Shown here piece after piece: positions 4,566 to 40,505 of a DNA stretch of 64,000 nt. Both the position numbers and the translations under genes were made by a program. The notes under the pieces were generated by a model, which ran no database searches, had not been told where the DNA came from, and worked only from the letters and a program-made list of their open reading frames with translations. Source of the stretch: Pseudomonadota bacterium (GTDB lineage Bacteria; Pseudomonadota; Gammaproteobacteria; Burkholderiales; Thiobacillaceae); the NCBI GenBank assembly GCA_040757575.1, contig JBFLXA010000012.1:4707-68706 (forward strand). Reading direction: 5' to 3'. Positions within the stretch are counted from its first letter, which is position 1. Each line of letters opens with the position of its first letter.

Positions 4566-5083
4566 GCCAGACAGCCAGTGTGGGCAGTGCCAGTTTGAGG
4601 GTGCTGCTGGCGGTGCCCAACGATTTCATCCGCTTGCCCCTGGCAAGGCTCCTGACTGAAACCCTGGGCCACCAGGTGACGGCCTGTGGTCAGGGCCATG
4701 AGGTCATGGCGGGGCTGGATCTGGCCCAGCCCCAGGTGGTCATTGCCGATTGGTCGATGCCTGGCCTGGACGGGGCCGCCCTGTGCCACGCCGTACGTGG
4801 CGCGGAATGGGGGCAGGGCACCTACTGCCTGCTGTTGTTTTCCCTGGCCAGCGAGATCAGTCTGGCGGAGGCCTTCCGGGCCGGGGCCGACGATTATCTG
4901 ATCAAGCCTGTCCATGCCCGGGATCTACGGCTACGTCTACAGGCTGCGGCCCGCAAGCTGGAAACCTACGTGGCCTGGGAACTGGATCGGGCCCGTCTCA
5001 AGGCTGTCGAAGCGGAACTGGTCCGCTGCTGTCCAGGGGCCTTGCAGCCGTGTTTGTCAGCAGCGGGGCAGGGGGGCGCATAA
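4562..5083 (+). CDS. stand-alone response-regulator receiver protein
   Basis: Phospho-acceptor context VVIADWSMPGLDG and conserved Lys in DYLIKP. The start overlaps the ccp stop (ATGA). Confidence 0.7.
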   Translation: MSQTASVGSASLRVLLAVPNDFIRLPLARLLTETLGHQVTACGQGHEVMAGLDLAQPQVVIADWSMPGLDGAALCHAVRGAEWGQGTYCLLLFSLASEISLAEAFRAGADDYLIKPVHARDLRLRLQAAARKLETYVAWELDRARLKAVEAELVRCCPGALQPCLSAAGQGGA

Positions 5084-9720: not shown

Positions 9721-9762
9721 CCCTCTCCCCCAGCCCCTCTCCCGCTTGCGGGCGAGGGGAGC
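9721..9762. repeat. REP-like element, family A
   Basis: CCCTCTCCCCCAGCCCCTCTCCCGCTTGCGGGCGAGGGGAGC in the iscA-nifU spacer. Confidence 0.75.
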
Positions 9763-10684: not shown

Positions 10685-10782
10685 TCCCCTCTCCCGCAAG
10701 CGGGAGAGGGCCAGGGCCAGGGCTTCCCATGGGCAATGACCCTCTCCCCCGGCCCCTCCCCCGCTTGCGGGGGAGGGGAGCA
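10685..10782. repeat. REP-like element, family A (two hairpin units)
   Basis: CCCCTCTCCCGCAAGCGGGAGAGGG and GCCCCTCCCCCGCTTGCGGGGGAGGGGAGC in the nifU-nifS spacer. Confidence 0.8.
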
Positions 10783-23388: not shown

Positions 23389-26289
23389 TTGCGGGACAAT
23401 CGGCGAAACTCCAACAACAATCAGGCAGTGATTTCCAGCTACCACACCAAATATCTCGCCTACGAGCTAACCCGCCGCTGCCCGCCTGACAGCGTCGAGA
23501 AGCTTGCTGGCGCTTTGGTCGATGCCCAGGTGGACCTCAACCCGCATCAGGTCGATGCCGCGCTCTTCGCCTTTCAGTCGCCGCTATCCAAGGGCGCCCT
23601 GCTGGCCGACGAAGTTGGCCTTGGCAAGACCATCGAAGCAGGCCTGGTTCTCTCCCAGAAATGGGCCGAACGCAAACGCCGCATCCTGATCATCACGCCT
23701 TCCAACCTACGCAAGCAGTGGTATCAGGAACTGGCCGAGAAATTCTTCCTGCCCTGCCGCATCCTCGAAGCGAAGTCCTACAACGCCGCCATTCGCCAGG
23801 GGCAATTCCGTCCCTTCGAGGCGCCCGAAATCGTCATCTGCTCTTACCAGTTCGCCAAGAGCAAGGCCGGCGACGTGCATGCCGTACCGTGGGACTTGGT
23901 GGTCATCGACGAAGCGCATCGGCTGCGCAACGTCTACAAGCCGTCCAACGTCATTGCCAACACGCTCAAGCTGGCGCTCGCTGGCAAGCACAAGCTGCTG
24001 CTCACTGCCACGCCGTTACAGAACTCGCTGCTGGAATTGTTCGGTCTGGTGAGCTTCATCGACGAACACACCTTTGGCGACCTGAAGAGTTTCCGCGAGC
24101 AGTTCGCCAACCTGGAGCAGGAACGGGTATTCCAAACGCTCAAGGCCCGCCTCAAGCCCGTCTGCCACCGCACGCTTCGCCGCCAGGTCACCGCCTACAT
24201 TCCCTATACCAAGCGCCTGCCGCTGGTGGAGGAGTTCACCCCGGAAGAAAGCGAAGACCGGCTCTACCATCTTGTTTCGGAGTACCTGCAACGGGACAAC
24301 CTTCAAGCCCTGCCGGCGGGCCAGCGTTCCCTGATGACGCTGGTGCTGCGCAAGCTCATGGCCTCGTCCACCTTTGCCATTGCTGGCGCGCTCACCTCCA
24401 TTTCCAACCGGCTCAAGGCCAAGCTGCGCAAGCAGGAACCTACGGAATCCCTCGAAGATGAGCTGGACCAGGACTACGAAGCCCTGGATGAGACCGCCGA
24501 GGAATGGACCGAAGACGATGCCGGCGAGTATCTGAGCGAGGCCGACCGCCAGGCCATCGAGCGTGAAATCGCCGACCTCGACGCATTCGCGCAACTGGCA
24601 GCCTCTATCGAATCCAACGCCAAGGGCAAGGCCCTGCTGAAGGCCCTGCGCATCGCTTTCGCCAAGGCGGAGGAAATCGGCGCGGCGCAGAAGGCCATCA
24701 TCTTCACCGAATCCCGCCGCACCCAGAACTACCTGCTGCGCGTACTGGCGGACAGCCCCTTCGCCGAGGGCGTCGTCCTGTTCAACGGCTCCAACACAGA
24801 TGAAGGCTCCAAGCTCATCTACAGCCAGTGGCTGGAACGCCATCAGGGCAGCGACCGGGTCACCGGCTCGCGCACTGCCGACATGCGCTCGGCCCTGGTG
24901 GACTACTTCCGCGAGCAGGGCCGCATCATGATTGCCACCGAGGCGGGTGCCGAAGGCATCAACCTCCAATTCTGCTCGCTGGTGGTCAATTACGATCTGC
25001 CCTGGAACCCCCAGCGTATCGAGCAGCGCATTGGCCGCTGCCATCGCTATAGCCAGAAGCACGACGTGGTGGTGGTCAATTTCCTCAACCGCAAGAACGC
25101 TGCCGATCAGCGCGTCTTTGAACTGCTGCGCGACAAGTTCCAGCTCTTCGAGGGCGTCTTCGGTGCCAGCGACGAAGTGCTGGGTGCCATCGAATCCGGC
25201 GTCGATTTCGAGAAACGCATCGCCGCCATCTACCAGACCTGCCGCAAGCCCGACGAGATAGCCACCGCATTCAACCAGCTCCAGCTCGAACTGAGCCTGG
25301 AAATCAACGAATCCATGACCCGTACACGGCAGAAGCTGCTGGAAAACTTCGACGACGAAGTCCGCGAAAAGCTCAAGGTGCGCGATGAAACCTCCAAGGC
25401 GTACCTGAACCGCTATGAACGCCTGCTTATGCAGCTCACCCGGCATGAGCTGGAGGGCCAGGCCGAGTTTCTGGGCGATGCCTCGTTCCGCCTTACAACC
25501 AACCCCTTCCCCGAACAGGCTGGTGCCATCCCCCTGGGCTTGTACGAACTTCCGCGCCGAACCGGCGAAGCACATCTCTACCGCCTCAATCACCCCCTGG
25601 CCGAGGCCATCGTCACCCAGGCGAAGAGGCGAGACCTGCCCGTTGCGGAAATCCGCTTCGATTACGGCAGGCATGATGGCAAGGTCACGACGCTTGAGCC
25701 GCTCATCGGCAAGTCTGGCTGGTTGGCCCTGACTCAGTTCAGCGTGGAATCCCTGGATCAGGCGGAAGACCACTTGATCTTTTCCGCCATCACCGATGAA
25801 GGCCAGATGCTGGAGGAGGAAATCGCGCAGCGGCTGTTGACGCTGCCTTGTGCTTCCACTCCCCAACCGTGCGTGGTAGAGGCGGGGATAAACGAATCCC
25901 TCGGCCGGCATGCCCAGAACCGCCAGACCGCCATCCAGCGCACCATCTCCGAACGCAATGCCCGCATTTTCGAGGCCGAAGCCGACAAACTCGACGGCTG
26001 GGCCGACGACCTGAAAGTTGGCCTGGAGCGGGAAATCAAGGAAATTGACCGCCAGATCAAGGAAGCCCGCCGTGCCGCCACCACGGCACTGACCCTGGAG
26101 GAAAAGCTCTCCGGTCAGAAGCAGATCAAGGCACTGGAGGCCCAGCGCAACCAGAAGCGCCACTCCCTGTTCGATGCCCAGGATCAGGTGGACAGGCAGC
26201 GGGAGGAGTTGATTTCCGCCATCGAGGGCAAACTAAATCAAGTTACCAGCTTGCAGTCCCTGTTTCTGCTGCGTTGGACGCTGGGCTGA
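23389..26289 (+). CDS. SNF2-family helicase/translocase with a ~330-aa C-terminal extension
   Basis: SNF2 motifs LADEVGLGKTIEAG (I), DLVVIDEAHRLRN (II), LLLTATPLQNS (III), ATEAGAEGINLQ and WNPQRIEQRIGRCHRYSQ (V/VI). Coiled-coil tail. TTG start. Confidence 0.9.
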   Translation: MRDNRRNSNNNQAVISSYHTKYLAYELTRRCPPDSVEKLAGALVDAQVDLNPHQVDAALFAFQSPLSKGALLADEVGLGKTIEAGLVLSQKWAERKRRILIITPSNLRKQWYQELAEKFFLPCRILEAKSYNAAIRQGQFRPFEAPEIVICSYQFAKSKAGDVHAVPWDLVVIDEAHRLRNVYKPSNVIANTLKLALAGKHKLLLTATPLQNSLLELFGLVSFIDEHTFGDLKSFREQFANLEQERVFQTLKARLKPVCHRTLRRQVTAYIPYTKRLPLVEEFTPEESEDRLYHLVSEYLQRDNLQALPAGQRSLMTLVLRKLMASSTFAIAGALTSISNRLKAKLRKQEPTESLEDELDQDYEALDETAEEWTEDDAGEYLSEADRQAIEREIADLDAFAQLAASIESNAKGKALLKALRIAFAKAEEIGAAQKAIIFTESRRTQNYLLRVLADSPFAEGVVLFNGSNTDEGSKLIYSQWLERHQGSDRVTGSRTADMRSALVDYFREQGRIMIATEAGAEGINLQFCSLVVNYDLPWNPQRIEQRIGRCHRYSQKHDVVVVNFLNRKNAADQRVFELLRDKFQLFEGVFGASDEVLGAIESGVDFEKRIAAIYQTCRKPDEIATAFNQLQLELSLEINESMTRTRQKLLENFDDEVREKLKVRDETSKAYLNRYERLLMQLTRHELEGQAEFLGDASFRLTTNPFPEQAGAIPLGLYELPRRTGEAHLYRLNHPLAEAIVTQAKRRDLPVAEIRFDYGRHDGKVTTLEPLIGKSGWLALTQFSVESLDQAEDHLIFSAITDEGQMLEEEIAQRLLTLPCASTPQPCVVEAGINESLGRHAQNRQTAIQRTISERNARIFEAEADKLDGWADDLKVGLEREIKEIDRQIKEARRAATTALTLEEKLSGQKQIKALEAQRNQKRHSLFDAQDQVDRQREELISAIEGKLNQVTSLQSLFLLRWTLG

Positions 26290-26293
26290 GACC

Positions 26294-28069
26294 ATGCCGA
26301 CCAGAGAGGAAAAAATCGCCCAACTCGAAGCCGCATTGCGAGGCCGCTTCTTTGCTAGCGTCCCCAAAATCGTGAAAGCCGGGCGCGAAAACTGGGCCGA
26401 TGACCAACACAATCTGGATCGTCTGACTCGCTCGCTCGCGGCCTACGCCGTGGTCGGATACTGCGAGATCGATGACACCACGGCGGTCGGCGCGATTACC
26501 GACGGTAGCGACGACGGTGGTATCGACGCCCTGTATTTTGATCGGCCCGGCAGTCGCTTGGTCTTCGTGCAGTCGAAGTTCAAGCCCGGTGGTACGGCCC
26601 CCTCCCAAGCGGAAGTCCAGAAGACCATCAACGGCATCAAGGCCATTCAAGCCAGACAGTTCAACGGTTTCAACGAAGCCATCCGCAACCGCCTGGATGA
26701 CATCGAAGAAGCACTCGACACCCCCGGCGTCAAACTGATGTTGCTGCTACCCTTCCTGGGCGACGCCATCGGGCCGCACGCCACCAACGACCTGAACGCT
26801 TTCAGGGATAGCCTGAATCAATTTTCCGAGGTCATGCAGTGGCAAGCCGTAAACCTGGATACGGCCTACGGCTGGCTGGTCGTGGAACAGGCACCGGCAA
26901 CCGTAGATGACCAAGTCGTTCTGGAAAACTGGTACGGAGTCCCTGGCCCGCGCAAAGCCTTCTATGGCCAGATCACGGCGGCGAACCTCGCCAAGCTGGT
27001 GGAAGACCACGGCAGGGCATTATTCGAGCGCAATATCCGGCATTACCTGGGTTCCGTCGGCGTGAACACCGCCATCGAGCGAACCGTGCGCACGCGGCCG
27101 GGCGATTTCTTCTACCTCAACAACGGCATCACCGCGATTGCCGACATCATCACCCAGGCGGCCGGAACCCATCAGAAGTGCGCCTTTGGCTGTACCAGGC
27201 TGTCCATCGTCAACGGCGCCCAGACGGCCGGGGCAATCTTCAACGCCACCCAGGTTGGGCAAATTTCTCCGGACGCCAAGTTGTTGCTGACCCTCATCGA
27301 GATCGGCGACGACGCAGACGACATCGGCCTGAAAATCACCCGCGCGCGCAACCACCAGAATGTCGTGCGCGGCGTTGATTTCGCCGCCCTCGATCCCAAC
27401 CAGGAGCGGCTGCGGCAAGAGCTTTCGGCGGCGAGTATCACCTATCACTACCGGCCTTCTGCGGAAGCGCGGGTACGGCGCGAGGATGCCTTTACCCTGG
27501 AGGAGGCCGCCATTGCCGTGGCCTGCCTGAACTTCAAGGTCAGGAACGCCGCCGAATTGCTACAGCACCCCAGGCCGACTAACGCCATCGACTTCACGGT
27601 GACCGCCAAGAAGGAAATCGGCCGCTTGTGGGAACAGGACGGCACACTCTACGACCTGCTTTTTCCAACCAACCTGTCCGGGCTGCGCCTTTGCCGGCTC
27701 GTGCGCATCTATCGCTTCGTCGACGCCATTCTTGCCGCTACCGAAAGATCGGAAGCCCAGTACAGCCGGCGCATGTTCTTCCGCCATGGCCGCTACTTCA
27801 TCATGGCTTTCGTCGCGCTCCGTTCCGCCGACGTACTCGGGAAACCACGGTTCGAACTTGCCGATGAAGACCGGACCCTTCTGTCCCAGCGCACCAACGA
27901 GATTTCCGAATTGATCTACGCAGCCTCGGTCCCGTATCAAGCAATGCGGGGTTATCTAGCAATCTTTCGCAACCTCACGGATTCCCAGCCGCTGGCCTAC
28001 AACGTTTTGCAACGATTGGCTGAACAAGATGCCCAACATGAGCAACCAGCACCGCCCATAGGCACCTGA
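26294..28069 (+). CDS. AIPR-family (abortive infection phage resistance) protein
   Basis: N-terminal nuclease-like DGSDDGGIDALYFD...VFVQSKF. AIPR core ERNIRHYLGSVGVN, FFYLNNGITAIA and IVNGAQT. The start is 4 nt after the SNF2 stop. Confidence 0.85.
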   Translation: MPTREEKIAQLEAALRGRFFASVPKIVKAGRENWADDQHNLDRLTRSLAAYAVVGYCEIDDTTAVGAITDGSDDGGIDALYFDRPGSRLVFVQSKFKPGGTAPSQAEVQKTINGIKAIQARQFNGFNEAIRNRLDDIEEALDTPGVKLMLLLPFLGDAIGPHATNDLNAFRDSLNQFSEVMQWQAVNLDTAYGWLVVEQAPATVDDQVVLENWYGVPGPRKAFYGQITAANLAKLVEDHGRALFERNIRHYLGSVGVNTAIERTVRTRPGDFFYLNNGITAIADIITQAAGTHQKCAFGCTRLSIVNGAQTAGAIFNATQVGQISPDAKLLLTLIEIGDDADDIGLKITRARNHQNVVRGVDFAALDPNQERLRQELSAASITYHYRPSAEARVRREDAFTLEEAAIAVACLNFKVRNAAELLQHPRPTNAIDFTVTAKKEIGRLWEQDGTLYDLLFPTNLSGLRLCRLVRIYRFVDAILAATERSEAQYSRRMFFRHGRYFIMAFVALRSADVLGKPRFELADEDRTLLSQRTNEISELIYAASVPYQAMRGYLAIFRNLTDSQPLAYNVLQRLAEQDAQHEQPAPPIGT

Positions 28070-28272
28070 CCGGCCAATGACGGGAAAACTATGATAAAGG
28101 AGTTACATCCCATGCCCCCAACGATTGGCAAGCTGGAGCCACCATAGGGTGAGGCTCACGCTATGAGCTTGATCACTGGAATCATTAGGCAGTGGGCGTA
28201 GCCGTGGTAAATGGCTTTGGTAATCCATCTTTTCGTGGCGCGATAACAATAGGGCACTGTAAGGAGTTGGAC

Positions 28273-28407
28273 ATGATGAGCAGCAAGGTGTTTAAGGAAT
28301 GCAGTAACTCCTTGGCTGGGAGAGGTGCGGAAAAATGTCTGCACCCACTTCAAGATTCTCTGCTTCGACCTGGAAGAGTTCATGCACCTACAGGTTGGAC
28401 GTTCTGA
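28273..28407 (+). CDS. candidate small protein (44 aa) in the AT-richer spacer
   Basis: Strong RBS AAGGAG 6 nt before the ATG. No homology recognised. It could equally be a leader or regulatory region. Confidence 0.25.
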   Translation: MMSSKVFKECSNSLAGRGAEKCLHPLQDSLLRPGRVHAPTGWTF

Positions 28408-28428
28408 GCGCTAATTTACGCATACGCC

Positions 28429-29175
28429 ATGTCACAAACCAGCCGTATCGAGTGGACTGAAGCGACCTGGAACCCGACCGTGGGTTGCAGCAAGATTTCC
28501 GCTGGCTGTAAGCACTGCTATGCGGAGGCCATGGCCAAGCGGCTCAAGGCCATGGGAACGCCCGGCTACGAGAACGGTTTCCAGCTGACACTCTTGCCGA
28601 ACAGATTGTCGGAACCGATCAATCGAAAAAAACCCGCCGTCTATTTTGTTAACTCAATGTCGGACCTTTTCCATAAGAAGGTTAGCGACACCTACATCGA
28701 ACAGGTCTTCGATGTCATTGAGCGTTGCCCTCAACATACTTTCCAGATACTCACCAAACGTGCGGAGCGGCTGGTCTCGTATTTCAGGCCTCGTACCGTG
28801 CCATCCAATGCATGGATTGGCGTGACAGTTGAAGACAAATTGAGTGGCCTAGCGCGAATCGATTGCCTAAGGAAAGTGGAAGCGCGCATACGCTTCCTAT
28901 CGATTGAGCCGCTACTAGAAGATCTGGGCAAGCTAAATCTTGACGGCATCCACTGGGTAATCGTGGGAGGGGAATCAGGGCCGAAGGCCAGGCCGATGAA
29001 GGTCGAATGGGTGGAAAATATCCGCCAGCAATGCGAAGCACAGAAAGTGCAGTTCTTTTTCAAACAATGGGGAGGGTGGGGGGCCGATGGCAAGCGGCGC
29101 TCCAAGAAAGCCAATGGACGGCTACTCGCAGGCCGTACTTGGGATGACATGCCCGCAGTATCCGCCTTGCCTTGA
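28429..29175 (+). CDS. DUF5131 / phage Gp37-Gp68 family protein (three-Cys motif)
   Basis: Family hallmarks IEWTEATWNPTVGCSKISAGCKHCYAE (C-x6-C-x2-C), FVNSMSDLFH, FQILTKR, FLSIEPLL, WVIVGGESG and FFFKQWGG. Confidence 0.9.
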   Translation: MSQTSRIEWTEATWNPTVGCSKISAGCKHCYAEAMAKRLKAMGTPGYENGFQLTLLPNRLSEPINRKKPAVYFVNSMSDLFHKKVSDTYIEQVFDVIERCPQHTFQILTKRAERLVSYFRPRTVPSNAWIGVTVEDKLSGLARIDCLRKVEARIRFLSIEPLLEDLGKLNLDGIHWVIVGGESGPKARPMKVEWVENIRQQCEAQKVQFFFKQWGGWGADGKRRSKKANGRLLAGRTWDDMPAVSALP

Positions 29176-29183
29176 AGGAAGTT

Positions 29184-30455
29184 ATGTCTCGCAAGCCATA
29201 CAACTGGAAAAATGGGCCCGATCTCATACAACCGCATAGTATTGCCAAACACCGGATACTGCAGTCGTATCTGGCCGCGTATTTCCAGACCTTGGTCAGC
29301 TCGCCCAATCAGGATGTTCTTCGACTCACACTTGTGGATGGTTTCGCCGGTGGTGGTCAATACGTCCACAGCGATACCGGTGAACTCGTCAAGGGTTCCC
29401 CCTTCATCTTTCTCGATGCTACCCGCGAGGCGGATTTTCTGATCAACCAGGGGCGCAGGAAGCCCGTTGACCTGAAGGTTGACTATTTTTTCATCGAAGC
29501 CGATCGTTATGCTCACGCGCATCTCGACAAGGTGTTGCGGGAAGAAGGACATGGCGGTCATATCGGAAACAACATCCAGCTCCGCCATGCCAAATTTCAG
29601 GACGAAGCTGACGACATCATCGATTTCATTAAACGGAAAAGCCCAAAAAATGGCCGGTCGATCTTCGCACTGGATCAATATGGTTACAAAGACATACCGG
29701 CTCCACTGGTCCGAAAGATCTTTGCCCAATTACCAAGCGCCGAAGTCATCCTGACTTTCGGCGTCGACTCATTCCTGAATTTCGCCGGCGTAGGCGAACT
29801 CACGCAGTCGTTGCTTGATGAAATCGGCATACCGGACATCCTGCAAGGCCGCTCTATCGATGAGATCAAAAACTCCGAAAAAGACTGGCGTCTGTTCATA
29901 CAAAGCGGACTTTACCGCTCATTGGTAAATCGATGTGGTGCCAAGTACTACACGCCCTTTTTCATCCGGAACAAGAAAGGGCATGGCGATTACTGGCTTA
30001 TCCACCTTTCGCAGCATCACCGGGCACGCGACGTCATGACCGAGGTGCACTGGAATAACAACAATTACTTTATCCACTATGGTGGTCCAGGGTTGGAGAT
30101 GTTCCAGATGGTCGGCTACGACCCGGATCATGACGATGAACGCAAGGGCCAAACCTGTTTGGGGTTCGAGTTCGACGATGTCGCCCGCAAAGCCAGCATT
30201 GCCGCTTTGAATGAACAGATACCCCGCCTTGTTTATGCCAATGCTGAAGGCCTCAGCTTTGGTGAGTTGTTTGCCACGACCTGCAATGAGTCGCCAGCTT
30301 CGGCGATTATTTATCGGGACTCCTTGGGGCAACAGCTTGAGGGGAGAGTGGTTGAGATCATCAGTCCGGAGGGGGTGAAACGCCGTTCGGCCCAGCAAAT
30401 AAAATCGAGCGATCAAATTATTGCGCCGCCCCAGCGGTCACTATTTTTCCCATGA
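29184..30455 (+). CDS. tcmP: three-Cys-motif partner protein TcmP-like
   Basis: N-terminal HSIAKHRILQSYLAAYF...LTLVDGFAGGGQY matches my memory of the TcmP family. Position immediately after a DUF5131 gene is the defining context. AAGGA RBS; the alternative TTG at 29172 overlaps the upstream stop. Confidence 0.75.
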   Translation: MSRKPYNWKNGPDLIQPHSIAKHRILQSYLAAYFQTLVSSPNQDVLRLTLVDGFAGGGQYVHSDTGELVKGSPFIFLDATREADFLINQGRRKPVDLKVDYFFIEADRYAHAHLDKVLREEGHGGHIGNNIQLRHAKFQDEADDIIDFIKRKSPKNGRSIFALDQYGYKDIPAPLVRKIFAQLPSAEVILTFGVDSFLNFAGVGELTQSLLDEIGIPDILQGRSIDEIKNSEKDWRLFIQSGLYRSLVNRCGAKYYTPFFIRNKKGHGDYWLIHLSQHHRARDVMTEVHWNNNNYFIHYGGPGLEMFQMVGYDPDHDDERKGQTCLGFEFDDVARKASIAALNEQIPRLVYANAEGLSFGELFATTCNESPASAIIYRDSLGQQLEGRVVEIISPEGVKRRSAQQIKSSDQIIAPPQRSLFFP

Positions 30456-32134
30456 AAAACAAGCAAAAACTCGAACTCACCTGGATCGGCAAGGAGAACC
30501 GGCCCCGGCTTGAGCCGCGCATTTTGCTGGAAGACCCGGGGCGGAGTTATCACGCCGGGCATCGGGTGAGTGATGCGGACATCTTCGACAACCGGCTGAT
30601 CTTCGGCGACAACCTGCTGGCCTTGAAGGCGCTGGAGGCGGAGTTCGCGGGGCGGGTGAAGTGCGTGTTCATCGACCCGCCCTACAACACCGGCAGCGCC
30701 TTCACCCATTACGACGATGGGGTGGAGCATTCCCTGTGGCTGTCCCTGATGCGCGACCGGCTGGAGGTCATCCGGCGGTTGTTGTCGGAGGATGGGTCGC
30801 TGTGGGTCACCATCGACGACAACGAATGCCATTACCTCAAGGTGTTGTGCGATGAGGTGTTTGGGCGGGCGAATTTCGTAGCGAATGTGGTTTGGCAGAA
30901 AAAATATGCCGTAGCCAATGATCACAAGACAATTGCCCCAATGCACGACCATCTACTGGTCTATCGGAAAACAGATAGTTGGCAGAGGAATTTGATTCCT
31001 CGCACCGAGGAGAAAGATCGCCAGTACAAATTCGAGGATGAAAAAGGGGTTTTTCGGAACAGTGACTACACCTGTAGCAAGTCATTTGAGGAGCGTCCGA
31101 ATCTCTACTACCCAATTATTCAACCGAATACAGGTGAAGAGATTTGGCCCAGCAAGACACGTGTTTGGGCTTATTCCAGAGACGAACACCTACGGCATGT
31201 CGCAGAGGGATTCATCTACTGGGGCAAGGATGGACTTGGTAAGACGCCCTCATTTAAGCGATACAAACACTTGCTGCGCAATCAAGGCGTGGTACCGCAA
31301 ACGCTTTGGTCTCACGAATATGCCAGCCACACGGATGCCGCGAGAAAAGAAGTGCGTGCAGTACTGGGGAGCTTGTCTCTTGCAGATGATTTCATTACTC
31401 CAAAGCCAGAGGGCTTGATACAGCGTGTACTCGAAATCGCCACCAACCCCGGCGACCTCGTCCTCGACTCCTTCGCCGGTTCCGGTACCACCGGCGCGGT
31501 GGCCCACAAGATGGGCCGGCGCTGGATCATGGTGGAGCTGGGCGAGCACTGCCACACCCATATCATCCCGCGCCTGAAGAAGGTCATTGACGGCGCGGAC
31601 CCCGGCGGCATCACCGAGGCCGTCGGCTGGAAGGGCGGCGGCGGTTTCCGCTATTACCGGCTGGCGCCTTCGCTGCTGGAAAAGGACAAGTGGGGCAACT
31701 GGGTCATCCACCGGGACTACAACGCCGCCATGCTGGCCGAGGCGCTGTGCAAGCTGGAAGGCTTCACCTATGCGCCTTCCGACGCGGTGTATTGGCAGCA
31801 CGGCCATTCCACCGAGCGGGATTTCCTCTACGTCACCACCGCCACTTTGTCCCACGAACAGTTGCAGCAGCTGGCCGACGAGGTGGGGCCGGAGCGTACG
31901 CTGCTGGTGCTGTGCCCGGCCTTCCGCAGCAGGGGCGATTTCGCCAACCTGACGGTGAAGAAGATTCCGAAGCAGGTGCTGTCCCGTTGCGAGTGGGGAC
32001 ATGACGATTATTCCTTGCGAGTGGAGAACTTGCCGGCGGCGCCGGAGCCCTCTCCCCCGGCCCCTCCCCCGCTTGCGGGGGAGGGGAGACAGACTGCCGC
32101 CCAACAGAACCTGTTCGACGGGGAACCATCATGA
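30452..32134 (+). CDS. mod: Type III restriction-modification DNA methyltransferase (Mod, N6-A/N4-C beta class)
   Basis: Motif IV FIDPPYNTG precedes motif I LDSFAGSGTTGAVA, with a variable central region between them. The start overlaps the tcmP stop (ATGA). The last ~30 codons are REP-derived. Confidence 0.9.
   Translation: MKNKQKLELTWIGKENRPRLEPRILLEDPGRSYHAGHRVSDADIFDNRLIFGDNLLALKALEAEFAGRVKCVFIDPPYNTGSAFTHYDDGVEHSLWLSLMRDRLEVIRRLLSEDGSLWVTIDDNECHYLKVLCDEVFGRANFVANVVWQKKYAVANDHKTIAPMHDHLLVYRKTDSWQRNLIPRTEEKDRQYKFEDEKGVFRNSDYTCSKSFEERPNLYYPIIQPNTGEEIWPSKTRVWAYSRDEHLRHVAEGFIYWGKDGLGKTPSFKRYKHLLRNQGVVPQTLWSHEYASHTDAARKEVRAVLGSLSLADDFITPKPEGLIQRVLEIATNPGDLVLDSFAGSGTTGAVAHKMGRRWIMVELGEHCHTHIIPRLKKVIDGADPGGITEAVGWKGGGGFRYYRLAPSLLEKDKWGNWVIHRDYNAAMLAEALCKLEGFTYAPSDAVYWQHGHSTERDFLYVTTATLSHEQLQQLADEVGPERTLLVLCPAFRSRGDFANLTVKKIPKQVLSRCEWGHDDYSLRVENLPAAPEPSPPAPPPLAGEGRQTAAQQNLFDGEPS
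32048..32088. repeat. REP-like element, family A, lying inside the 3' end of mod
   Basis: CCCTCTCCCCCGGCCCCTCCCCCGCTTGCGGGGGAGGGGAG. It is translated in frame as PSPPAPPPLAGEG. Confidence 0.8.
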
Positions 32135-33216
32135 GCGGCAAGGGGCGTACCCCGCCGCCGGCACAGACTGCCGGCGCACTGAACGGCGGCGAATTTCTGC
32201 TGTACCAGACCGAGGATGCCCAGACCCGCGTGCAGTTGCGGGTGTCCGAGGGCACCGTCTGGATGACCCAGAAGCAGCTCGCCGAGCTGTATCAGGTGAG
32301 CGTGCCGGCCATTGCCCAGCACATCCGCAATATCTACTCGGAGCGGGAGCTGGCCCCGGAGGCAACTGTTAAAGATTACTTAATAGTTGCCCCGGAAGCC
32401 GCGCGGACAGTGGAACGGCGCATCGCCCACTACCGGCTGGAGATGGTGCTGGCCATCGGCTACCGGGTGCGTTCCCATCGCGGCACCCAGTTCCGCCGCT
32501 GGGCGACGGAGCAGCTCAAGAGCTATCTGGTGAAGGGCTTCGTGCTGGACGACGAGCGCTTCAAACGCGGGGACGACACCTATTTCGACGAGTTGCTGGC
32601 CCGCATCCGGGACATCCGCTCCTCGGAGAAGGTGTTCTGGAAGAAGGTGCTGGATATCTATGCCACCAGCATCGATTACGACCCCTCGGCGGAAGCCTCG
32701 CAACGCTTCTTCGCCACGGTGCAGAACAAGATGCACTGGGCGGCCCATGGCCATACGGCGGCGGAATTGGTTGTACTGCGCGCGGATGCGCATGCGCCCA
32801 ACATGGGCATGACCAATTGGCCCGGCGCAGCCAAAGGAGGTGCGATCCGCAAGGCGGATGCCGGTGTGGCCAAGAACTATCTCAACGAAGCGGAACTGGA
32901 GACGCTGAACCGGATCGTGAACGCCTACCTGGAATTCGCCGAGTTGCAGGCCCAGGCCCGGCGGGAAATGACCATGGCCACCTGGATTGGCAAGCTGGAC
33001 GACTTCCTGCGTCTATCGGACCGGGAGGTGTTGACCCATGCCGGCAAGATCACGGCGGAACTGGCGCAGGCCAAGGCGGAGGCGGAATTTCGGGTTTTCC
33101 AGCAGCGCCAGCTCGCCGCTCCTAGCAGGGTGGAACAGGATTTCGAGGCAGCCATCGAGGTGGAGGTGAAGCTGTTGGAGAAAACCACCAAGAAGAACAA
33201 GGGGAAAAAGGGATGA
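32131..33216 (+). CDS. RhuM-family protein (COG3943) inserted between mod and res
   Basis: Characteristic blocks VWMTQKQLAELYQVS, AIGYRVRSHRGTQFRRWATEQLK, DYFDELLARIRDIRSSEK and KMHWAAHGHTAAEL. ATGA overlaps on both sides. Confidence 0.85.
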   Translation: MSGKGRTPPPAQTAGALNGGEFLLYQTEDAQTRVQLRVSEGTVWMTQKQLAELYQVSVPAIAQHIRNIYSERELAPEATVKDYLIVAPEAARTVERRIAHYRLEMVLAIGYRVRSHRGTQFRRWATEQLKSYLVKGFVLDDERFKRGDDTYFDELLARIRDIRSSEKVFWKKVLDIYATSIDYDPSAEASQRFFATVQNKMHWAAHGHTAAELVVLRADAHAPNMGMTNWPGAAKGGAIRKADAGVAKNYLNEAELETLNRIVNAYLEFAELQAQARREMTMATWIGKLDDFLRLSDREVLTHAGKITAELAQAKAEAEFRVFQQRQLAAPSRVEQDFEAAIEVEVKLLEKTTKKNKGKKG

Positions 33217-35903
33217 ACCGCCACGTCAACGCCATCGCCGGCCGCCTGAGCCTGCGCCATCCGCAACGCCGCTCGCTGGAAATCCTGGACCGCATCACCG
33301 AGATCGCCCCGCCAAGCAAGGACGTGGACCTGGCGGCGGTGCTGGAGACCATCAAGAGCGAGTTTCCGTCGGTGACGGACTTCGAGCGGGAGTTTCCGTC
33401 CCTATGCTTTGCCCTGGCCACAGGGGTGGGCAAAACACGCCTCATGGGTGCCTTCATCAGTTATCTGCATCTGGCCCACGGCATCAACAACTTCTTTGTG
33501 CTGGCGCCCAACCTGACCATCTACAACAAGCTGATTGCCGATTTCAGCGACCGCAACCATCCCAAGTATGTGTTCCGGGGCATCGCCGAGTTCGCCATCG
33601 ACGCGCCGTCGATCATCACCGGCGACAACTACGACCAGCGCGATCCCATGAGCGGCACGCTGTTCGGCGGGGTGAGGATCAACATCTTCAACATCTCCAA
33701 GATCAATTCGGAAGTGCGCGGCGGCAAGTCGCCCCGCATCAAGCGGCTGTCGGAATACATCGGCGAGAGCTATTTCGACTATCTGGCTGGCTTGCCGGAT
33801 CTGGTCATGCTGATGGATGAATCGCATCGCTATCGAGCCAGTGCCGGCATTCGCGCCATCAACGAATTGAAGCCGATCCTGGGGCTGGAGCTGACGGCCA
33901 CGCCCTTCGTGGAGACCACGCGGGGTGCTACGGCCTTCAAGAACGTGATTGTTGACTACCCCCTGGGCCGGGCAATGGCCGATGGCTTCGTCAAGGAACC
34001 GGCGGTGGTGACGCGGAAGAATTTCAACCCGGCGGGCATGTCGGTGGAGGAGATCGAGCGGCTGAAACTGGAAGACGGTGTGCGTCTGCATGAGTCCGTG
34101 AAGGTGGAGCTGGAGACCTATGCCCGCGAGAGCGAGAACCCGATCGTCAAGCCGTTCCTGCTGGTGATTGCCCGTGATACCACCCACGCCGGGCAACTGA
34201 CCGAGCTGATCAAGTCCGACAAATTCTTTGAGGGGCGCTATCGGGACAAGGTCATCCAGGTGGATTCGAGCAAGACCGGCGCGGAAGAAGAGGAGATGAT
34301 CGGCCGACTGCTCAAGGTGGAGCACACCGACGAGCCGACGGAGATCGTGATTCACGTCAACATGCTCAAGGAGGGCTGGGACGTGACCAATCTCTACACC
34401 ATCGTGCCGCTGCGTGCCGCCAATGCCCGCATCCTCATCGAGCAATCCATCGGGCGCGGTCTGCGCCTGCCCTATGGCAAGCGCACCGGCGTCATGGCAG
34501 TGGACCGGCTGAATATCGTTGCCCACGACAAATTCCAGGAGATCATCTCCGAGGCCAACAAGCCGGATTCGGCGATTCACTTGCAGGCCGTGGTGCTGGA
34601 CTCAGAAGACCTGGGCCAGAAGACCGCCACGGTGGTGTCGCAATCTCAATTGGCCTCGAAGCTGGGGCTGAAACCCGCCCAGGTGACCAGCAACACGGTG
34701 GTGGCGGGTGGCGAAACTGTGCCGGTTTTCACCAAGCCCGAAGAGCAGAAGGTGGCCCAGATCACCTTTGATGTCATCCGCAAGCTGGAAAACCAGCCGC
34801 AGACGCTGCCTACCGTCGAATACCTGAAGAAGCCGGAGATACAGGCCGCCATCATCAAGGCTGTAGAAGAACAGCACCAGCCGGCGCAGTTGGAACTGGA
34901 AGGGGTGGCGGAGAAGCCTGACATTGCTGCCGTGGTGGCGAAGACGGTGGAACTGGTCACGCAACAGACCATCGATATCCCGCGCATTCTGGTGGTGCCC
35001 AAAGGTGAGGTGAAATCAGGCTTCAAACCGTTCACCCTGGACCTGACCACGCTGAAATATCCGGCAGTATCCGATGAGCTTTGGATTCAGCACCTGCGCA
35101 CGAATCAGCTTGAAGTTGTTGCCCTCGGCCGGGGCGGCATCGAGGAAGCCCGGCTGGAAGATTATGTGGTCAGCGGTCTGGTGGACTTCGACGACATTTC
35201 CTACGACCACCACTCCGACTTGCTCTATGACTTGGCAACGCAGACCGTGGCGCACTTCCGGACCTATCTTGCCGAAGACGACGCGCGCAAGGTGTTGCGA
35301 TGCTACCAGCGCGACATCGCCCGTTTTATCCACGCCCAGATGCAGGCCCATTACTGGGAGGATGTGGCCGGCTACGAGGTGAAGATCAACAAGGGCTTCA
35401 CCGAGCTGAAGCAGAGTGCCTACACCTATTCGGTACAGGAACCGCCCGCCAGTTACCGGGTGGAACCGGCGGACAAAAGCAACATGGCGAAGTACCTCTT
35501 CGGCGGCTTCGAGAAATGCCTGTACCCAGTGCAGAAGTTCGATTCGGACTCCGAACGCAAACTGGCGGTGATTCTGGAGCGGGACGCCCTCAAGTGGTTC
35601 AAGCCTGCGAAGGGACAGTTCCAGATTTATTACCGGGATGGGGCAGATCATCGGGAATATCAGCCGGATTTCATTGCCGAGACGACCGACGCAATTTATA
35701 TGCTGGAACCCAAGAAGCGCACGGAGCTGGATGACCCCATTGTTCAGGCCAAGAAGGAGGTGGCTGTGCAGTGGTGCGCGAATGCTTCAGATCATGCGGC
35801 GAGTTACAGCGGCAAGCCGTGGCGCTATGTGCTGATTCCCCATGATGAGATTGCTGAGAACATGACGCTTGAGGGCGTGGCGGCGCGGTTTGGTTGCACT
35901 TGA
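33213..35903 (+). CDS. res: Type III restriction endonuclease Res subunit (SF2 helicase + PD-ExK nuclease)
   Basis: Helicase motifs LATGVGKT, LMDESHRY, LELTATPF and EGWDVTN...QSIGRGLR. C-terminal nuclease motif YQPDF-x12-EPKK. Confidence 0.9.
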   Translation: MNRHVNAIAGRLSLRHPQRRSLEILDRITEIAPPSKDVDLAAVLETIKSEFPSVTDFEREFPSLCFALATGVGKTRLMGAFISYLHLAHGINNFFVLAPNLTIYNKLIADFSDRNHPKYVFRGIAEFAIDAPSIITGDNYDQRDPMSGTLFGGVRINIFNISKINSEVRGGKSPRIKRLSEYIGESYFDYLAGLPDLVMLMDESHRYRASAGIRAINELKPILGLELTATPFVETTRGATAFKNVIVDYPLGRAMADGFVKEPAVVTRKNFNPAGMSVEEIERLKLEDGVRLHESVKVELETYARESENPIVKPFLLVIARDTTHAGQLTELIKSDKFFEGRYRDKVIQVDSSKTGAEEEEMIGRLLKVEHTDEPTEIVIHVNMLKEGWDVTNLYTIVPLRAANARILIEQSIGRGLRLPYGKRTGVMAVDRLNIVAHDKFQEIISEANKPDSAIHLQAVVLDSEDLGQKTATVVSQSQLASKLGLKPAQVTSNTVVAGGETVPVFTKPEEQKVAQITFDVIRKLENQPQTLPTVEYLKKPEIQAAIIKAVEEQHQPAQLELEGVAEKPDIAAVVAKTVELVTQQTIDIPRILVVPKGEVKSGFKPFTLDLTTLKYPAVSDELWIQHLRTNQLEVVALGRGGIEEARLEDYVVSGLVDFDDISYDHHSDLLYDLATQTVAHFRTYLAEDDARKVLRCYQRDIARFIHAQMQAHYWEDVAGYEVKINKGFTELKQSAYTYSVQEPPASYRVEPADKSNMAKYLFGGFEKCLYPVQKFDSDSERKLAVILERDALKWFKPAKGQFQIYYRDGADHREYQPDFIAETTDAIYMLEPKKRTELDDPIVQAKKEVAVQWCANASDHAASYSGKPWRYVLIPHDEIAENMTLEGVAARFGCT

Positions 35904-36930: not shown

Positions 36931-37866
36931 TCAGGTTGTTGCATATTCCACTTCATACACCCCGCCGATTACCGCGTATTCATCCTCTCCCGCCAGCCGG
37001 CCCGGCAGCAGGCCATGGAAGAAAGCCACCTTGGCCAGGGGCACTTCCACTTCCAGGATGAAGTCGCCGAACTCCCCGGCCCGCTCCCGGTTGCGGGTGA
37101 AGGAGGACAGGCTGTTGAGCAGTACCACCCGGCGGGGTTTGTCGCGGAGGTTGTCTGCGGGGTGGGCCATCTCGTACAGGGTTTCGTGGTCCCCCATGTG
37201 GTTCACGCCCCGGTAAAGGGTGATATGGGTCTGGCCCAGGCGCTGGCGGCCCAGTTCGTACTGGCAGTAGGTGTAGAGCAGGTCCAGCTGGGCTTCCAGG
37301 GCGTTGGTGCCGTACAGGCCCCGGGAACGTTGTTCCAGGTAGGCCCGGTAGGGCAGGGCGGAGAAATCCCGGATGGGGCCGCCGTGGTGGCGGGGCAGCA
37401 GGCCAAAGCAGGATTCCACCCAGCCCTTGAGCACGGCGCCTTCCTGGCCGTCGCTGTCGAAGGCCCAGCCCCGCAGCAGGCGCAGGTAGTGGGCCTTGGC
37501 CCGGGCATGGCGGGCGTTGTCCCGCCAGCCCGCTTCTTCCGGGCTGTCCAGGCTGAAGGCGGCGGCCATGTGGTTCTGGAACAGGCGGGCGCGTTCAGCG
37601 GGGTCGGCAAGACGATCCAGGGCCATGAACAGGGGCTTGTGGAGTTCCAGCACGCCGTCCAGGGCCAGGGCCACGGGGCGTTTCTGGTAGGCCAGGCTGC
37701 CCAGCAGCACCGCCGGCAGGCTGCACCGGTTGATGGGCAGGCGGGCCTGGCGGGGCAGGCTGGCACGGTCCCGGTCTGCGGTGGTGTGTGTTGTAGGCAG
37801 CGCGACAAAGTTTTGCGTTTTGTCGTGTGCCACTCCCGTATCAGGATCGTTATGTCCTGTTTTCAT
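36931..37866 (-). CDS. draT: NAD+-dinitrogenase reductase ADP-ribosyltransferase DraT
   Basis: DraT blocks EGAVLKGWVES, LEAQLDLLYTYCQYEL, LYRGVN and GEDEYAVIGG. Divergent from nifH. Confidence 0.88.
   Translation of the reverse strand: MKTGHNDPDTGVAHDKTQNFVALPTTHTTADRDRASLPRQARLPINRCSLPAVLLGSLAYQKRPVALALDGVLELHKPLFMALDRLADPAERARLFQNHMAAAFSLDSPEEAGWRDNARHARAKAHYLRLLRGWAFDSDGQEGAVLKGWVESCFGLLPRHHGGPIRDFSALPYRAYLEQRSRGLYGTNALEAQLDLLYTYCQYELGRQRLGQTHITLYRGVNHMGDHETLYEMAHPADNLRDKPRRVVLLNSLSSFTRNRERAGEFGDFILEVEVPLAKVAFFHGLLPGRLAGEDEYAVIGGVYEVEYATT
37792..37807. promoter_or_regulatory. NifA-type UAS (TGT-N10-ACA) upstream of nifH
   Basis: TGTaggcagcgcgACA, about 100 bp upstream of the -24 box and inside the 5' end of draT. 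Confidence 0.6.
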
Positions 37867-37883
37867 GTCTTTATATTCAATGA

Positions 37884-38873
<990 letters not shown>

Positions 38874-38880
38874 TGTTGAA

Positions 38881-38975
38881 GCCCCTCCCCCGCCGGGGGA
38901 GGGGTTGGGGAGAGGGTGGGTTCGCCAACGCGACTTTCCCTCACCCCCGGCCCCTCTCCCGGTGGGAGAGGGGAG
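38881..38975. repeat. REP-like element, family A (two units in opposite orientations)
   Basis: GCCCCTCCCCCGCCGGGGGAGGGG...GGGGAGAGGG and CCCTCACCCCCGGCCCCTCTCCCGGTGGGAGAGGGGAG in the nifH-nifD spacer. Confidence 0.8.
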
Positions 38976-39029
38976 TGACCAACCCAACATGCTGTCCACA
39001 GATTGGTGGCAGCGTGAAAGGAGAAAGAA

Positions 39030-40505
39030 ATGTCTAACCTGACTCGCGAAGAAACCGAAGCCCTCATCGCCGAGGTGCTGGAGGTATATCCCGACAAGGC
39101 CAAGAAGGACCGTGCCAAGCACCTGGCCGTCAACGACCAGAGCATCGAACAATCCAAGAAGTGCATCACCTCCAACCGCAAGTCCCTGCCCGGTGTCATG
39201 ACCATCCGCGGCTGTGCCTATGCCGGTTCCCGGGGTGTGGTGTGGGGTCCCATCAAGGACATGATCCACATTTCCCACGGCCCCGTGGGCTGCGGCCAGT
39301 ATTCCCGCGCCGGGCGCCGTAACTACTACGTCGGCACCACCGGCGTGAACACCTTTGCCGAGATGAACTTCACCTCCGACTTCCAGGAGAAGGACATCGT
39401 CTTCGGTGGCGACAAGAAACTGGCCAAGATCATTGAAGAGATCGAGGGCCTGTTCCCCCTGCACAAGGGCATCTCCGTGCAATCCGAGTGCCCCATCGGC
39501 CTGATCGGTGACGACATCGAAGCCGTGTCCAAGAAGGGCGCTGCCACCATCAACAAACCCGTGGTGCCCGTGCGCTGCGAGGGCTTCCGGGGCGTGTCCC
39601 AGTCCCTGGGCCACCACATCGCCAACGATGCCATCCGTGACTGGGTGCTGGACCGCCGCGACAACGTCGCCTTCGAATCCACCCCCTACGACGTGACCAT
39701 CATCGGTGACTACAACATCGGCGGCGACGCCTGGTCCTCCCGCATCCTGCTGGAAGAAATGGGTCTTCGGGTCATCGCCCAGTGGTCCGGCGACGGCACC
39801 CTGGCCGAAATGGAAAACACCCCCAAGGCCAAGCTGAACCTGCTGCACTGCTACCGTTCCATGAACTACATCAGCCGGCACATGGAAGAGAAGTACGGTA
39901 TTCCCTGGATGGAATACAACTTCTTTGGCCCCACCAAGATCGAGGAATCCCTGCGCAGGATCGCCGCCTTCTTTGATGACAGCATCAAGCAGAAGTGCGA
40001 GGAAGTGATCGCCAAGTACCGCCCCATGGTGGATGCCGTGATCGAGAAGTACAAGCCCCGCCTCACCGGCAAGCGGGTCATGCTGTACGTGGGCGGCCTG
40101 CGTCCCCGGCACGTGATCGGTTCCTACGAGGACCTGGGCATGGAAGTGGTGGGCACCGGCTACGAGTTCGCCCACGGCGACGACTACGACCGCACCATCA
40201 AGGAAATGGGTAACGCCACCCTGCTGTACGACGACGTCACCGGCTTCGAATTCGAGGAATTCGTGAAGAAGGTGAAGCCTGACCTGGTGGGCTCCGGCAT
40301 CAAGGAAAAGTACATCTTCCAGAAGATGGGCATCCCCTTCCGCCAGATGCACAGCTGGGACTACTCCGGCCCCTACCACGGCTACGACGGCTTCGCCATC
40401 TTCGCCCGGGACATGGACATGACCCTGAACAACCCCTGCTGGGGCAAGCTGGTGCCGCCCTGGAAGAAGGTTGAAGAAGCCCAGGAACTGGCCAAGGCAG
40501 CCTGA
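39030..40505 (+). CDS. nifD: nitrogenase MoFe protein alpha chain NifD
   Basis: Typical NifD sequence ([62 protein letters not shown]). Confidence 0.98.

Follow-up and report, generated by a model that had tools for sequence, protein, structure and literature searches.

The DUF5131-TcmP gene pair as probable mobile cargo of a mosaic SNF2-Mod-Res defence island in a Thiobacillaceae genome

The stretch of 64,000 nucleotides analyzed here (the window; positions 4,707 to 68,706 of contig JBFLXA010000012.1, assembly GCA_040757575.1) comes from a Pseudomonadota bacterium of the Thiobacillaceae and contains a co-directional, 13-kb island (23389-35903) that encodes, in this order, an SNF2 helicase, AIPR, DUF5131, TcmP, Mod, RhuM and Res, where Mod and Res are the methyltransferase and the restriction protein of a Type III-like restriction-modification (R-M) system. 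It is well supported by comparison with related loci that this locus is a mosaic defence island whose backbone is SNF2-Mod-Res, a three-gene Type III-like restriction system, and that two gaps in the backbone act as cargo slots, of which the slot between SNF2 and Mod (slot 1) is occupied in the window by AIPR and the DUF5131-TcmP pair and that between Mod and Res (slot 2) by RhuM. AIPR, DUF5131-TcmP and RhuM are interchangeable occupants of these slots and not components of the backbone. The best explanation overall, which we hold to be fairly probable, is that the pair is autonomous mobile cargo of the mosaic island and provides independent protection beside restriction; we hold the architecture with high confidence and the chemistry with low confidence. 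An earlier note on this DNA had described the five genes from DUF5131 to res as a single operon and had suggested that the pair belongs to an expanded Type III system as a built-in part. The five-gene arrangement is real, but the co-directional unit is larger, as the SNF2 gene, with which it begins 5 kb upstream, and the AIPR gene had been missed, and the suggested expansion is not supported by the comparisons described below.

Backbone and cargo slots of the island

Homologues of Res with 44-53% identity were found by tblastn on 34 plasmids in PLSDB, and six of these plasmids, from Salmonella (IncFIB), Deinococcus, Aeromonas, Sphingopyxis, Roseomonas and Paracoccus, were inspected (L099-L102, L106 and L107). 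All six share the order of SNF2-related protein, gap, site-specific DNA methyltransferase and Res. The plasmids of Salmonella, Deinococcus, Aeromonas and Sphingopyxis encode proteins that by tblastn are 40-59% (SNF2), 45-51% (Mod) and 45-53% (Res) identical to those of the window, and the backbone of the Roseomonas and Paracoccus plasmids was judged by annotation ("SNF2-related protein"). The gap between SNF2 and Mod contains an Abi gene and IS256 in Salmonella, AIPR, a helix-turn-helix (HTH) gene and VapC in Deinococcus, an AAA ATPase and DUF4276 in Aeromonas, one hypothetical gene in Sphingopyxis and about 1 kb with no annotated gene in Roseomonas; it is empty in Paracoccus, which has the bare three-gene form. 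Neither DUF5131 nor TcmP was found on any of the six inspected plasmids. At the protein level, the backbone is conserved with 40-59% identity in Beta-, Gamma- and Alphaproteobacteria and in Deinococcota.

Metagenomic relatives, of which 80 loci were fetched through TcmP, vary in the same two places. Loci with the closest TcmPs (76-96% identity) have Mod and Res homologues downstream, and SNF2 lies upstream in L022-L025, where the sequence is long enough, as it does in L001. A complete Kiwa system (KwaA and KwaB) is found between TcmP and Mod in three loci (L024, 11340-12831; L025, 11328-12870; L026, 2414-4036). The slot between Mod and Res contains Ppl in L022 (12921-15716; PADLOC Ppl, E 2e-142) and a YhcG/DUF1016 PDDEXK nuclease in L025 (14543-15865) and is empty in L020 and L024. 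The cultured bacterium Verminephrobacter eiseniae has SNF2, DUF5131, TcmP, an AAA_15 ATPase, a disrupted Mod and Res. It is because the contents of the gaps vary among plasmids, metagenomic loci and Verminephrobacter that we recognize two cargo slots in the backbone. The variable content of the Mod-Res slot agrees with the suggestion of the earlier note that RhuM is a passenger of the R-M operon. Published work describes RhuM genes within R-M operons (PMC3710099) and AIPR as common in such operons (PMC2292703).

The closest genomic locus, L001 of a Hydrogenophilus sp. metagenome-assembled genome, has the same order as the window, with SNF2, other genes, DUF5131, TcmP, Mod, RhuM and Res. The flanks of the two islands are unrelated, and the island therefore moves or is retained as a block. 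SNF2 is 91.7% identical between the two loci and AIPR is replaced: after SNF2, L001 (6538-9224) encodes an IetA-like AAA ATPase, an HTH-M78 (ImmA/RmrA-like) peptidase and DUF4411 where the window has AIPR. Given this IetA-like cargo, and given that the 'ietHAS' system is reported to require a DrmD-like SNF2 helicase (PMC13069673), SNF2 may, by analogy, serve the slot cargo rather than, or alongside, R-M.

Identity to L001 is itself a mosaic. The pair and the first 375 nt of mod (to 30826) are 96.7% identical to L001, and the rest of the island is 87-92% identical. Within mod, positions 30452-30826 are 96.7% identical, 30827-31402 are unalignable and 31403-32089 are 87% identical; the middle region (30827-31402) is, on this alignment pattern, a swapped target-recognition domain. 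The RhuM proteins are 45% identical with an unalignable N-terminal half, and the C-terminal part of RhuM together with Res is 87% identical. The G+C content at third codon positions (GC3) is 0.63 for the DUF5131 gene and 0.60 for tcmP, compared with 0.74-0.82 for mod, rhuM, res and the SNF2 gene. That the pair is more AT-rich than its surroundings had been seen before and is clearest at GC3. Because of its lower GC3, and because its 96.7% identity to L001 differs from the 87-92% of the rest of the island, the pair has a separate history, and both observations bear out the earlier proposal that DUF5131-TcmP is a cassette grafted beside the R-M genes.

The right part of mod contains a palindromic GC-rich element of 41 nt that resembles repetitive extragenic palindromes (REP). 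The window has three copies of it (32048-32088, 10740-10780 and 9721-9761), with 0 expected by chance. The last ~30 residues of Mod (~32 aa) are encoded by this element, the MTase_III match covers aa 1-528, and homology to L001 stops at 32089, straight after the element, which marks the boundary of the variable Mod-Res slot on its left side.

By sequence criteria, Mod and Res can be assigned to Type III R-M. In Mod, FIDPPYNTG precedes DSFAGSGTT, and Res, which is encoded downstream of mod, has superfamily 2 (SF2) helicase motifs and QPDFIAETTDAIYMLEPK near its C-terminus (PD-x12-EPK). The Type III enzymes EcoP15I and EcoP1I likewise have this motif order in Mod, an SF2 Res with a C-terminal PD-(D/E)xK and the gene order of mod followed by res. 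The subfamily of the window differs from them by the upstream SNF2 helicase, present in 6/6 plasmids, and also tolerates foreign genes at the SNF2-Mod and Mod-Res positions. With Class 1 DISARM the window shares a DrmD-like SNF2 helicase beside an adenine/cytosine-N methylase, but its nuclease partner is a Type III Res. Membership in Class 1 DISARM was considered and rejected, as no DrmA (helicase), DrmB (DUF1998) or DrmC (PLD) is found within 23-36 kb of the window and SNF2 matches NCBIfam DISARM_DrmD_b with 693 bits, under the cut-off of 950.

Spread and predicted folds of the DUF5131-TcmP pair

DUF5131 is directly followed by TcmP in nearly all loci examined. TcmP forms ~1,500 clusters at 50% identity in a library of 1.8 billion proteins, and homologues of DUF5131 number in the thousands, with at least 8,000 candidates. 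The contexts of the pair were surveyed mainly on metagenomic contigs and plasmids, and a scan of genome contigs by exact peptide words gave nine loci. The pair is found on 74 plasmid records, 30 of them conjugative. It follows an integrase and is without R-M on pCAR1 and the Pseudomonas aeruginosa megaplasmids, and it is also without R-M on Burkholderia plasmids, at a chromosomal site of B. pseudomultivorans with core-genome context and at the end of a type IV secretion system (T4SS)/integrative and conjugative element (ICE) gene cluster of Thiomonas arsenitoxydans. As cargo of Tn7-like elements, beside TnsA/TnsB/TniB-type genes in L007, L010, L054 and L076, it likewise occurs without R-M.

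The pair also occurs in the temperate Gordonia phage Easley (L098, 4359-7424), where gp38 encodes DUF5131 (E 3e-92) and gp39 a TcmP-like protein (E 3e-34). The integrase and an ImmA-like peptidase flank the two genes on one side, the immunity repressor gp40 flanks them on the other, and gp39, which is annotated as "methyltransferase", is directly downstream of gp40. Prophages usually keep lysogen-expressed genes in the lysogeny/immunity module. A further candidate, phiE125 gp38, which is the neighbour of the namesake gp37 of the DUF5131 (phage Gp37/Gp68) family, was rejected as it is not TcmP-like. A TcmP match is found in only 6 phage records, compared with 176 for DUF5131. Since the pair is mostly found without R-M, on plasmids, ICEs, Tn7-like elements and in a prophage immunity module, we conclude, partly by inference, that it is an autonomous, horizontally mobile two-gene module and that R-M and the pair need not each other.

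Mobility of this kind is also what would be expected if the pair were a self-protective DNA- or RNA-modification module of mobile elements, anti-restriction or epigenetic, which is close to R-M genes only because they share islands. The plasmid records with their conjugative members, the Tn7-like cargo and the position at the end of an ICE/T4SS cluster are consistent with such a module, as are the methyltransferase fold predicted for TcmP and the phages, in which DUF5131 is found in 176 records: in the two lytic-module phage contexts inspected, DUF5131 is among replication genes, and in phage Bakery it has a C5-methylase neighbour. We nevertheless consider this explanation very unlikely. The Easley pair is in the lysogeny/immunity module, the typical site of prophage defence genes; PADLOC derived PDC-M30 from embedding in defence islands; all neighbours of the pair in the island of the window are defence genes; and simple co-location does not explain the position upstream of methylase genes that is described below.

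The AlphaFold2 (AF2) model of TcmP (predicted local distance difference test score, pLDDT, 78; predicted template modelling score, pTM, 0.80) shows a Rossmann methyltransferase fold at residues ~10-290 and a confident winged helix at ~332-413; this C-terminal GMT-winged helix-turn-helix (wHTH) domain corresponds to PF22560. The top Foldseek match is Escherichia coli RlmJ (E 1e-8), more than 100 class I S-adenosylmethionine (SAM) methyltransferases rank after it at E < 1e-3, and a viral fold search of BFVD with TcmP returned generic methyltransferases only. Residues W8, K22, Y29, D52, F54, G56, G58, L163 and D164 are invariant across long and short TcmP paralogues. They include motif I, VDGFxGGG (D52, F54, G56 and G58), which is DGFAGGG in the copy of the window; at the position of motif IV, long forms have LDQYG and short forms LDP(Y/F), so that the aspartate is invariant and the PP dipeptide is not kept. 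By its model and motif I, TcmP resembles RlmJ, the 23S rRNA m6A2030 methyltransferase (DUF519); at the position of motif IV it keeps an aspartate and an aromatic residue but has DQYG instead of DPPY, and it carries the extra wHTH.

DUF5131 contains the Cys motif VGCSKISAGCKHC with the spacing Cx6Cx2C, and C20, C27 and C30 together with G180-G181-E182 (the GGES motif) are invariant in 69 sequences. The canonical radical-SAM motif Cx3Cx2C is absent from DUF5131. Its AF2 model (pLDDT 81) alternates beta and alpha elements and suggests a small barrel. Compared with spore photoproduct lyase (SPL) and lipoyl synthase (LipA), both radical-SAM enzymes, DUF5131 likewise has three cysteines and a GGE sequence, but it has Cx6Cx2C instead of Cx3Cx2C and is smaller. 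It matches the NCBIfam model of radical SAM mobile pair protein A with E 5e-30, under the cut-off, and RadicalSAM.org places DUF5131 in Megacluster-5-2 and SPL under Megacluster-5-3 (PMC9477430). Sequence identity of TcmP and DUF5131 to the structural matches RlmJ, SPL and LipA is only 9-16%, and no homologue of either protein was returned when the PDB was searched by sequence. The alignments used for AF2 were shallow in diversity, because a second, profile-based homologue search returned largely the same subfamily of 53-100% identity. With this limit, the models point to an RlmJ-like methyltransferase fold with a wHTH for TcmP and to a LipA/SPL-like radical-SAM barrel for DUF5131.

The pair is catalogued in PADLOC as the two-gene phage-defence candidate PDC-M30, and also under PDC-M41. 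In the window the two genes are adjacent, co-oriented and 8 nt apart, match PDC-M30B (E 1e-115) and PDC-M30A (E 1e-23) and, by their junctions, are predicted to be coupled in translation to the Type III mod that follows. A second TcmP, shorter and of the M41A type, or a third, distant one is present in some relatives. The short paralogue (~300 aa, without wHTH, PADLOC PDC-M41A) is present in 13 loci (examples of short or extra copies are L004, 1070-2089; L008, 8352-9248; and L013, 8281-9126), and a distant TcmP-like gene of 393 aa with weak PDC-M30A matches is present in 15 loci (e.g., L047, 11899-13080), where it sometimes shares a separate operon with an Eco57I-like methylase. DUF488 accompanies the pair in five loci. 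A Peptidase_S24 gene (LexA/CI-like, 190-200 aa) is directly upstream of DUF5131 or of the short TcmP paralogue in 13 loci (e.g., L032, 2212-2802; L008, 7758-8336), which suggests that the pair is controlled by DNA damage or by the immunity of its element.

As a further alternative, the pair might serve in DNA repair or damage tolerance, in which case DUF5131 would be an SPL-like, lesion-reversing lyase and TcmP its lesion-recognition partner. SPL is among the best structural matches of DUF5131, the LexA/CI-like S24 peptidase is directly upstream in the 13 loci, imuA-imuB-dnaE2 lies beside the pair on a B. glumae plasmid, and RecA, an SbcC-like ATPase and ribonucleotide reductase lie around it on a Methylobacterium plasmid. 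Such a role is highly improbable, however, given that the pair turns up sporadically and in company with mobile elements instead of being a conserved member of core genomes, that S24 repressors also commonly serve prophages and ICEs as immunity genes, that the fold similarity to SPL is weak and shared with LipA, and that the island of the window contains no repair genes.

Based on the architecture and the models, we propose that the pair may be co-expressed with R-M by read-through and translational coupling, as the junctions in the window suggest. TcmP would bind DNA or RNA through its winged helix and RlmJ-like methyltransferase fold and probably flip out a base, and DUF5131, as a putative Fe-S/SAM enzyme, would then carry out radical chemistry on the exposed base. 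The module would thereby form a second layer of protection that is independent of restriction, by analogy the same role as proposed for PrrC, RhuM and AIPR genes within R-M operons. Accessory defence or toxin genes are likewise embedded in and co-expressed with R-M operons that contain PrrC (EcoprrI), RloC, RhuM, AIPR or YhcG/DUF1016. PrrC is held latent by its R-M system and is triggered by a phage anti-restriction peptide. Cargo of the PrrC type is a nuclease or NMPylase toxin, whereas the cargo of the window is a predicted two-enzyme, SAM-dependent module.

Methylase adjacency and its explanations

Several observations weigh against the explanation of the pair as independent cargo, and the first concerns the gene downstream of TcmP. 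Among 67 informative loci, which are those with at least 1.5 kb downstream of TcmP and which are not independent of each other, an R-M methylase gene is the next gene after TcmP, on the same strand and 0-166 nt away, in 13. Methylase matches among the other ORFs within 7 kb, taken as background, number 8 of 758 (Fisher's exact p = 3e-10). Both counts come from a jackhmmer census that was seeded with six methylases from these loci, in which unrelated families (e.g., C5) are missed downstream and in the background alike. These methylases represent six gene families among 48 distinct types of downstream neighbours, and the polarity is constant, with the pair first and then the methylase. In phage Bakery (L103, 1421-3975), moreover, a C5-cytosine methylase (gp63) ends where DUF5131 (gp64) starts. 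Such adjacency is also what functional cooperation with methylases would predict. Two further points concern the chemistry: catalysis by TcmP is uncertain, as it has DQYG where RlmJ-type enzymes have DPPY, and the best PDB folds for DUF5131, LipA and SPL, are weak matches (E 0.01-0.05, TM-score ~0.5, probability 0.97-0.99). Finally, the literature found on the pair consists of a superfamily listing, mentions in gene tables and counts in a P. aeruginosa survey, with no experimental work, and the role of the pair in defence is therefore only guilt by association.

The 13 downstream methylases comprise six Type III Mod proteins and seven Type IIG enzymes (MmeI-like, Eco57I-like and other). For Type III partners as for MmeI-like ones, the TcmPs belong to two clades, ~75% and ~54% identical to that of the window. 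The junction between tcmP and mod is 0-6 nt in L001 and L020-L022; on an Acidovorax plasmid, methylase, helicase and GIY-YIG genes are directly upstream of the pair; and gp63-gp64 of Bakery lie among early/replication genes. The neighbourhood census that had been suggested earlier thus found R-M methylase genes next to the pair more often than at the other positions of the neighbourhood, and this adjacency goes beyond ordinary clustering in defence islands. It could reflect cooperation with methylases, shared regulation or preferred insertion at the 5' end of R-M operons.

With respect to cooperation, the pair may be a novel nucleic-acid-modifying module of two enzymes, in which TcmP would present a flipped base to the radical-SAM enzyme, and may work with whichever R-M methylase lies downstream, either by turning the methyl mark into a hypermodified base or by reading methylation to trigger defence. 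This would explain the repeated directional fusion of the pair to the 5' end of six unrelated methylase families, and we nevertheless judge it quite unlikely. The view of the earlier note was more specific in that the pair was thought to be functionally integrated with its R-M system, through a second, radical-SAM-dependent modification on or near the Mod-methylated base or through licensing of restriction. Integration of this kind is consistent with the tight coupling (the ATGA overlap of tcmP and mod in the window and the 0-6 nt junctions elsewhere), with methylases of six families directly after TcmP in 13/67 loci as against 8/758 other ORFs, with the Acidovorax and Bakery arrangements, and with the predicted SAM-enzyme folds of both proteins, which would be suited to nucleic acid. 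It is at odds with the absence of the pair from the backbone in 6/6 sampled plasmids, with the promiscuous content of the slot that the pair occupies, with the Kiwa genes (L024-L026) or AAA ATPase (Verminephrobacter) that part TcmP from Mod, and with the codon composition of the pair, which is unlike that of its neighbours. In addition, most loci of the pair are without R-M (~3/4 have no detected R-M methylase gene nearby), and the partners are of both Type III and Type IIG, a variation that speaks against a specific interaction of the proteins. Functional integration is therefore unlikely, and autonomous cargo with an independent protective role remains our preferred explanation.

Island features and implications

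The features of the island are summarized in Table 1. Translated ORFs confirm five genes on the same strand from DUF5131 to res, and the families that the earlier note had assigned to them are each matched by hidden Markov models of Pfam, NCBIfam or PADLOC; RhuM, for instance, matches PF13310 with 365 bits (gathering cut-off, 33.7). The Cx6Cx2C of DUF5131, the DPPY before FAGSGTT of Mod and the PD-x12-EPK of Res are all present in the translations. The junctions are also as previously described: the TGA stop of the DUF5131 gene at 29173-75 is followed by 8 nt, AGGAAGTT, and then by the ATG of tcmP at 29184, and ATGA overlaps join tcmP to mod (30452), mod to rhuM (32131) and rhuM to res (33213). 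Upstream, the AIPR gene begins 4 nt past the SNF2 stop.

Table 1. Features of the defence island in the window (positions of the window).
Feature	Position	Strand	Evidence and remarks
SNF2-family DrmD-like helicase gene	23389..26289	+	Pfam SNF2-rel_dom and Helicase_C; PADLOC DrmD, E 2e-207
AIPR/AbiU-like abortive-infection gene (slot 1 cargo)	26294..28069	+	Pfam AIPR, E 1e-33; PADLOC AbiU, E 1e-29
Low-GC spacer, 359 nt, possibly with a promoter for the downstream five genes	28070..28428	+	Homology to L001 resumes at 28334
DUF5131 gene	28429..29175	+	PF07505, E 1e-108; PADLOC PDC-M30B and PDC-M41B
tcmP	29184..30455	+	TIGR04474, E 9e-70, 236 bits (cut-off, 53); PADLOC PDC-M30A
mod (Type III, beta-class N6/N4 methyltransferase)	30452..32134	+	N6_N4_Mtase, E 7e-47; PADLOC MTase_III, E 2e-209
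REP-like palindromic GC-rich element, 41 nt, CCCTCTCCCCCGGCCCCTCCCCCGCTTGCGGGGGAGGGGAG	32048..32088	.	Within the 3' end of mod
rhuM	32131..33216	+	PF13310, E 2e-109; PADLOC PDC-S05
res (Type III, SF2 helicase and nuclease motif)	33213..35903	+	ResIII, E 1.5e-19; PADLOC REase_III, E 1e-216

A scan of the region for promoters and terminators gave matches not above chance. A single sigma-70-like match is at 28066-28095, and the count of such matches in the region is no higher than chance; terminator-like sites number 12, compared with 8.0 +/- 2.6 in shuffled sequences, ~1.5 standard deviations above the mean. A weak terminator-like hairpin followed by a T-run, GCCGCCCCAGCGGT CACTATTTTT, is at 30425-30447, in the last codons of tcmP and before the ATG of mod. 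An Rfam search of the island, including the spacer, found no riboswitch or other family, and no direct or inverted repeats that would mark its ends were found flanking it. The island spans ~23.0-36.1 kb and abuts draT-nifHDK, with draT (DRAT, E 3e-94) and nifH-nifD beside it at 36931-40505, so that the defence island has been inserted beside the nitrogenase genes of this genome.

Part of this is already catalogued, namely the pair as TIGR04474/PF07505 and as PADLOC PDC-M30/M41, and R-M operons with embedded cargo have precedents. What may be new are the SNF2-[slot]-Mod-[slot]-Res organization, the directional link of DUF5131-TcmP to R-M methylase genes and the RlmJ-like assignment of TcmP. The natural unit is the SNF2-Mod-Res backbone with two cargo slots rather than a five-gene expanded Type III enzyme, and the slots are practical places to seek new defence genes. 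The pair is a large, common and uncharacterized family pair of SAM enzymes that can be studied in cultured carriers, such as Verminephrobacter eiseniae, which has the same backbone, and Thiomonas arsenitoxydans, Burkholderia and pCAR1, which have the pair. A key question raised by its preference for the 5' side of methylase genes is whether the module acts on DNA and talks to methylases. Taken by itself, the locus is a mosaic defence island of the ordinary kind, and it points to a gene pair whose link to methylases is non-random and directly testable.

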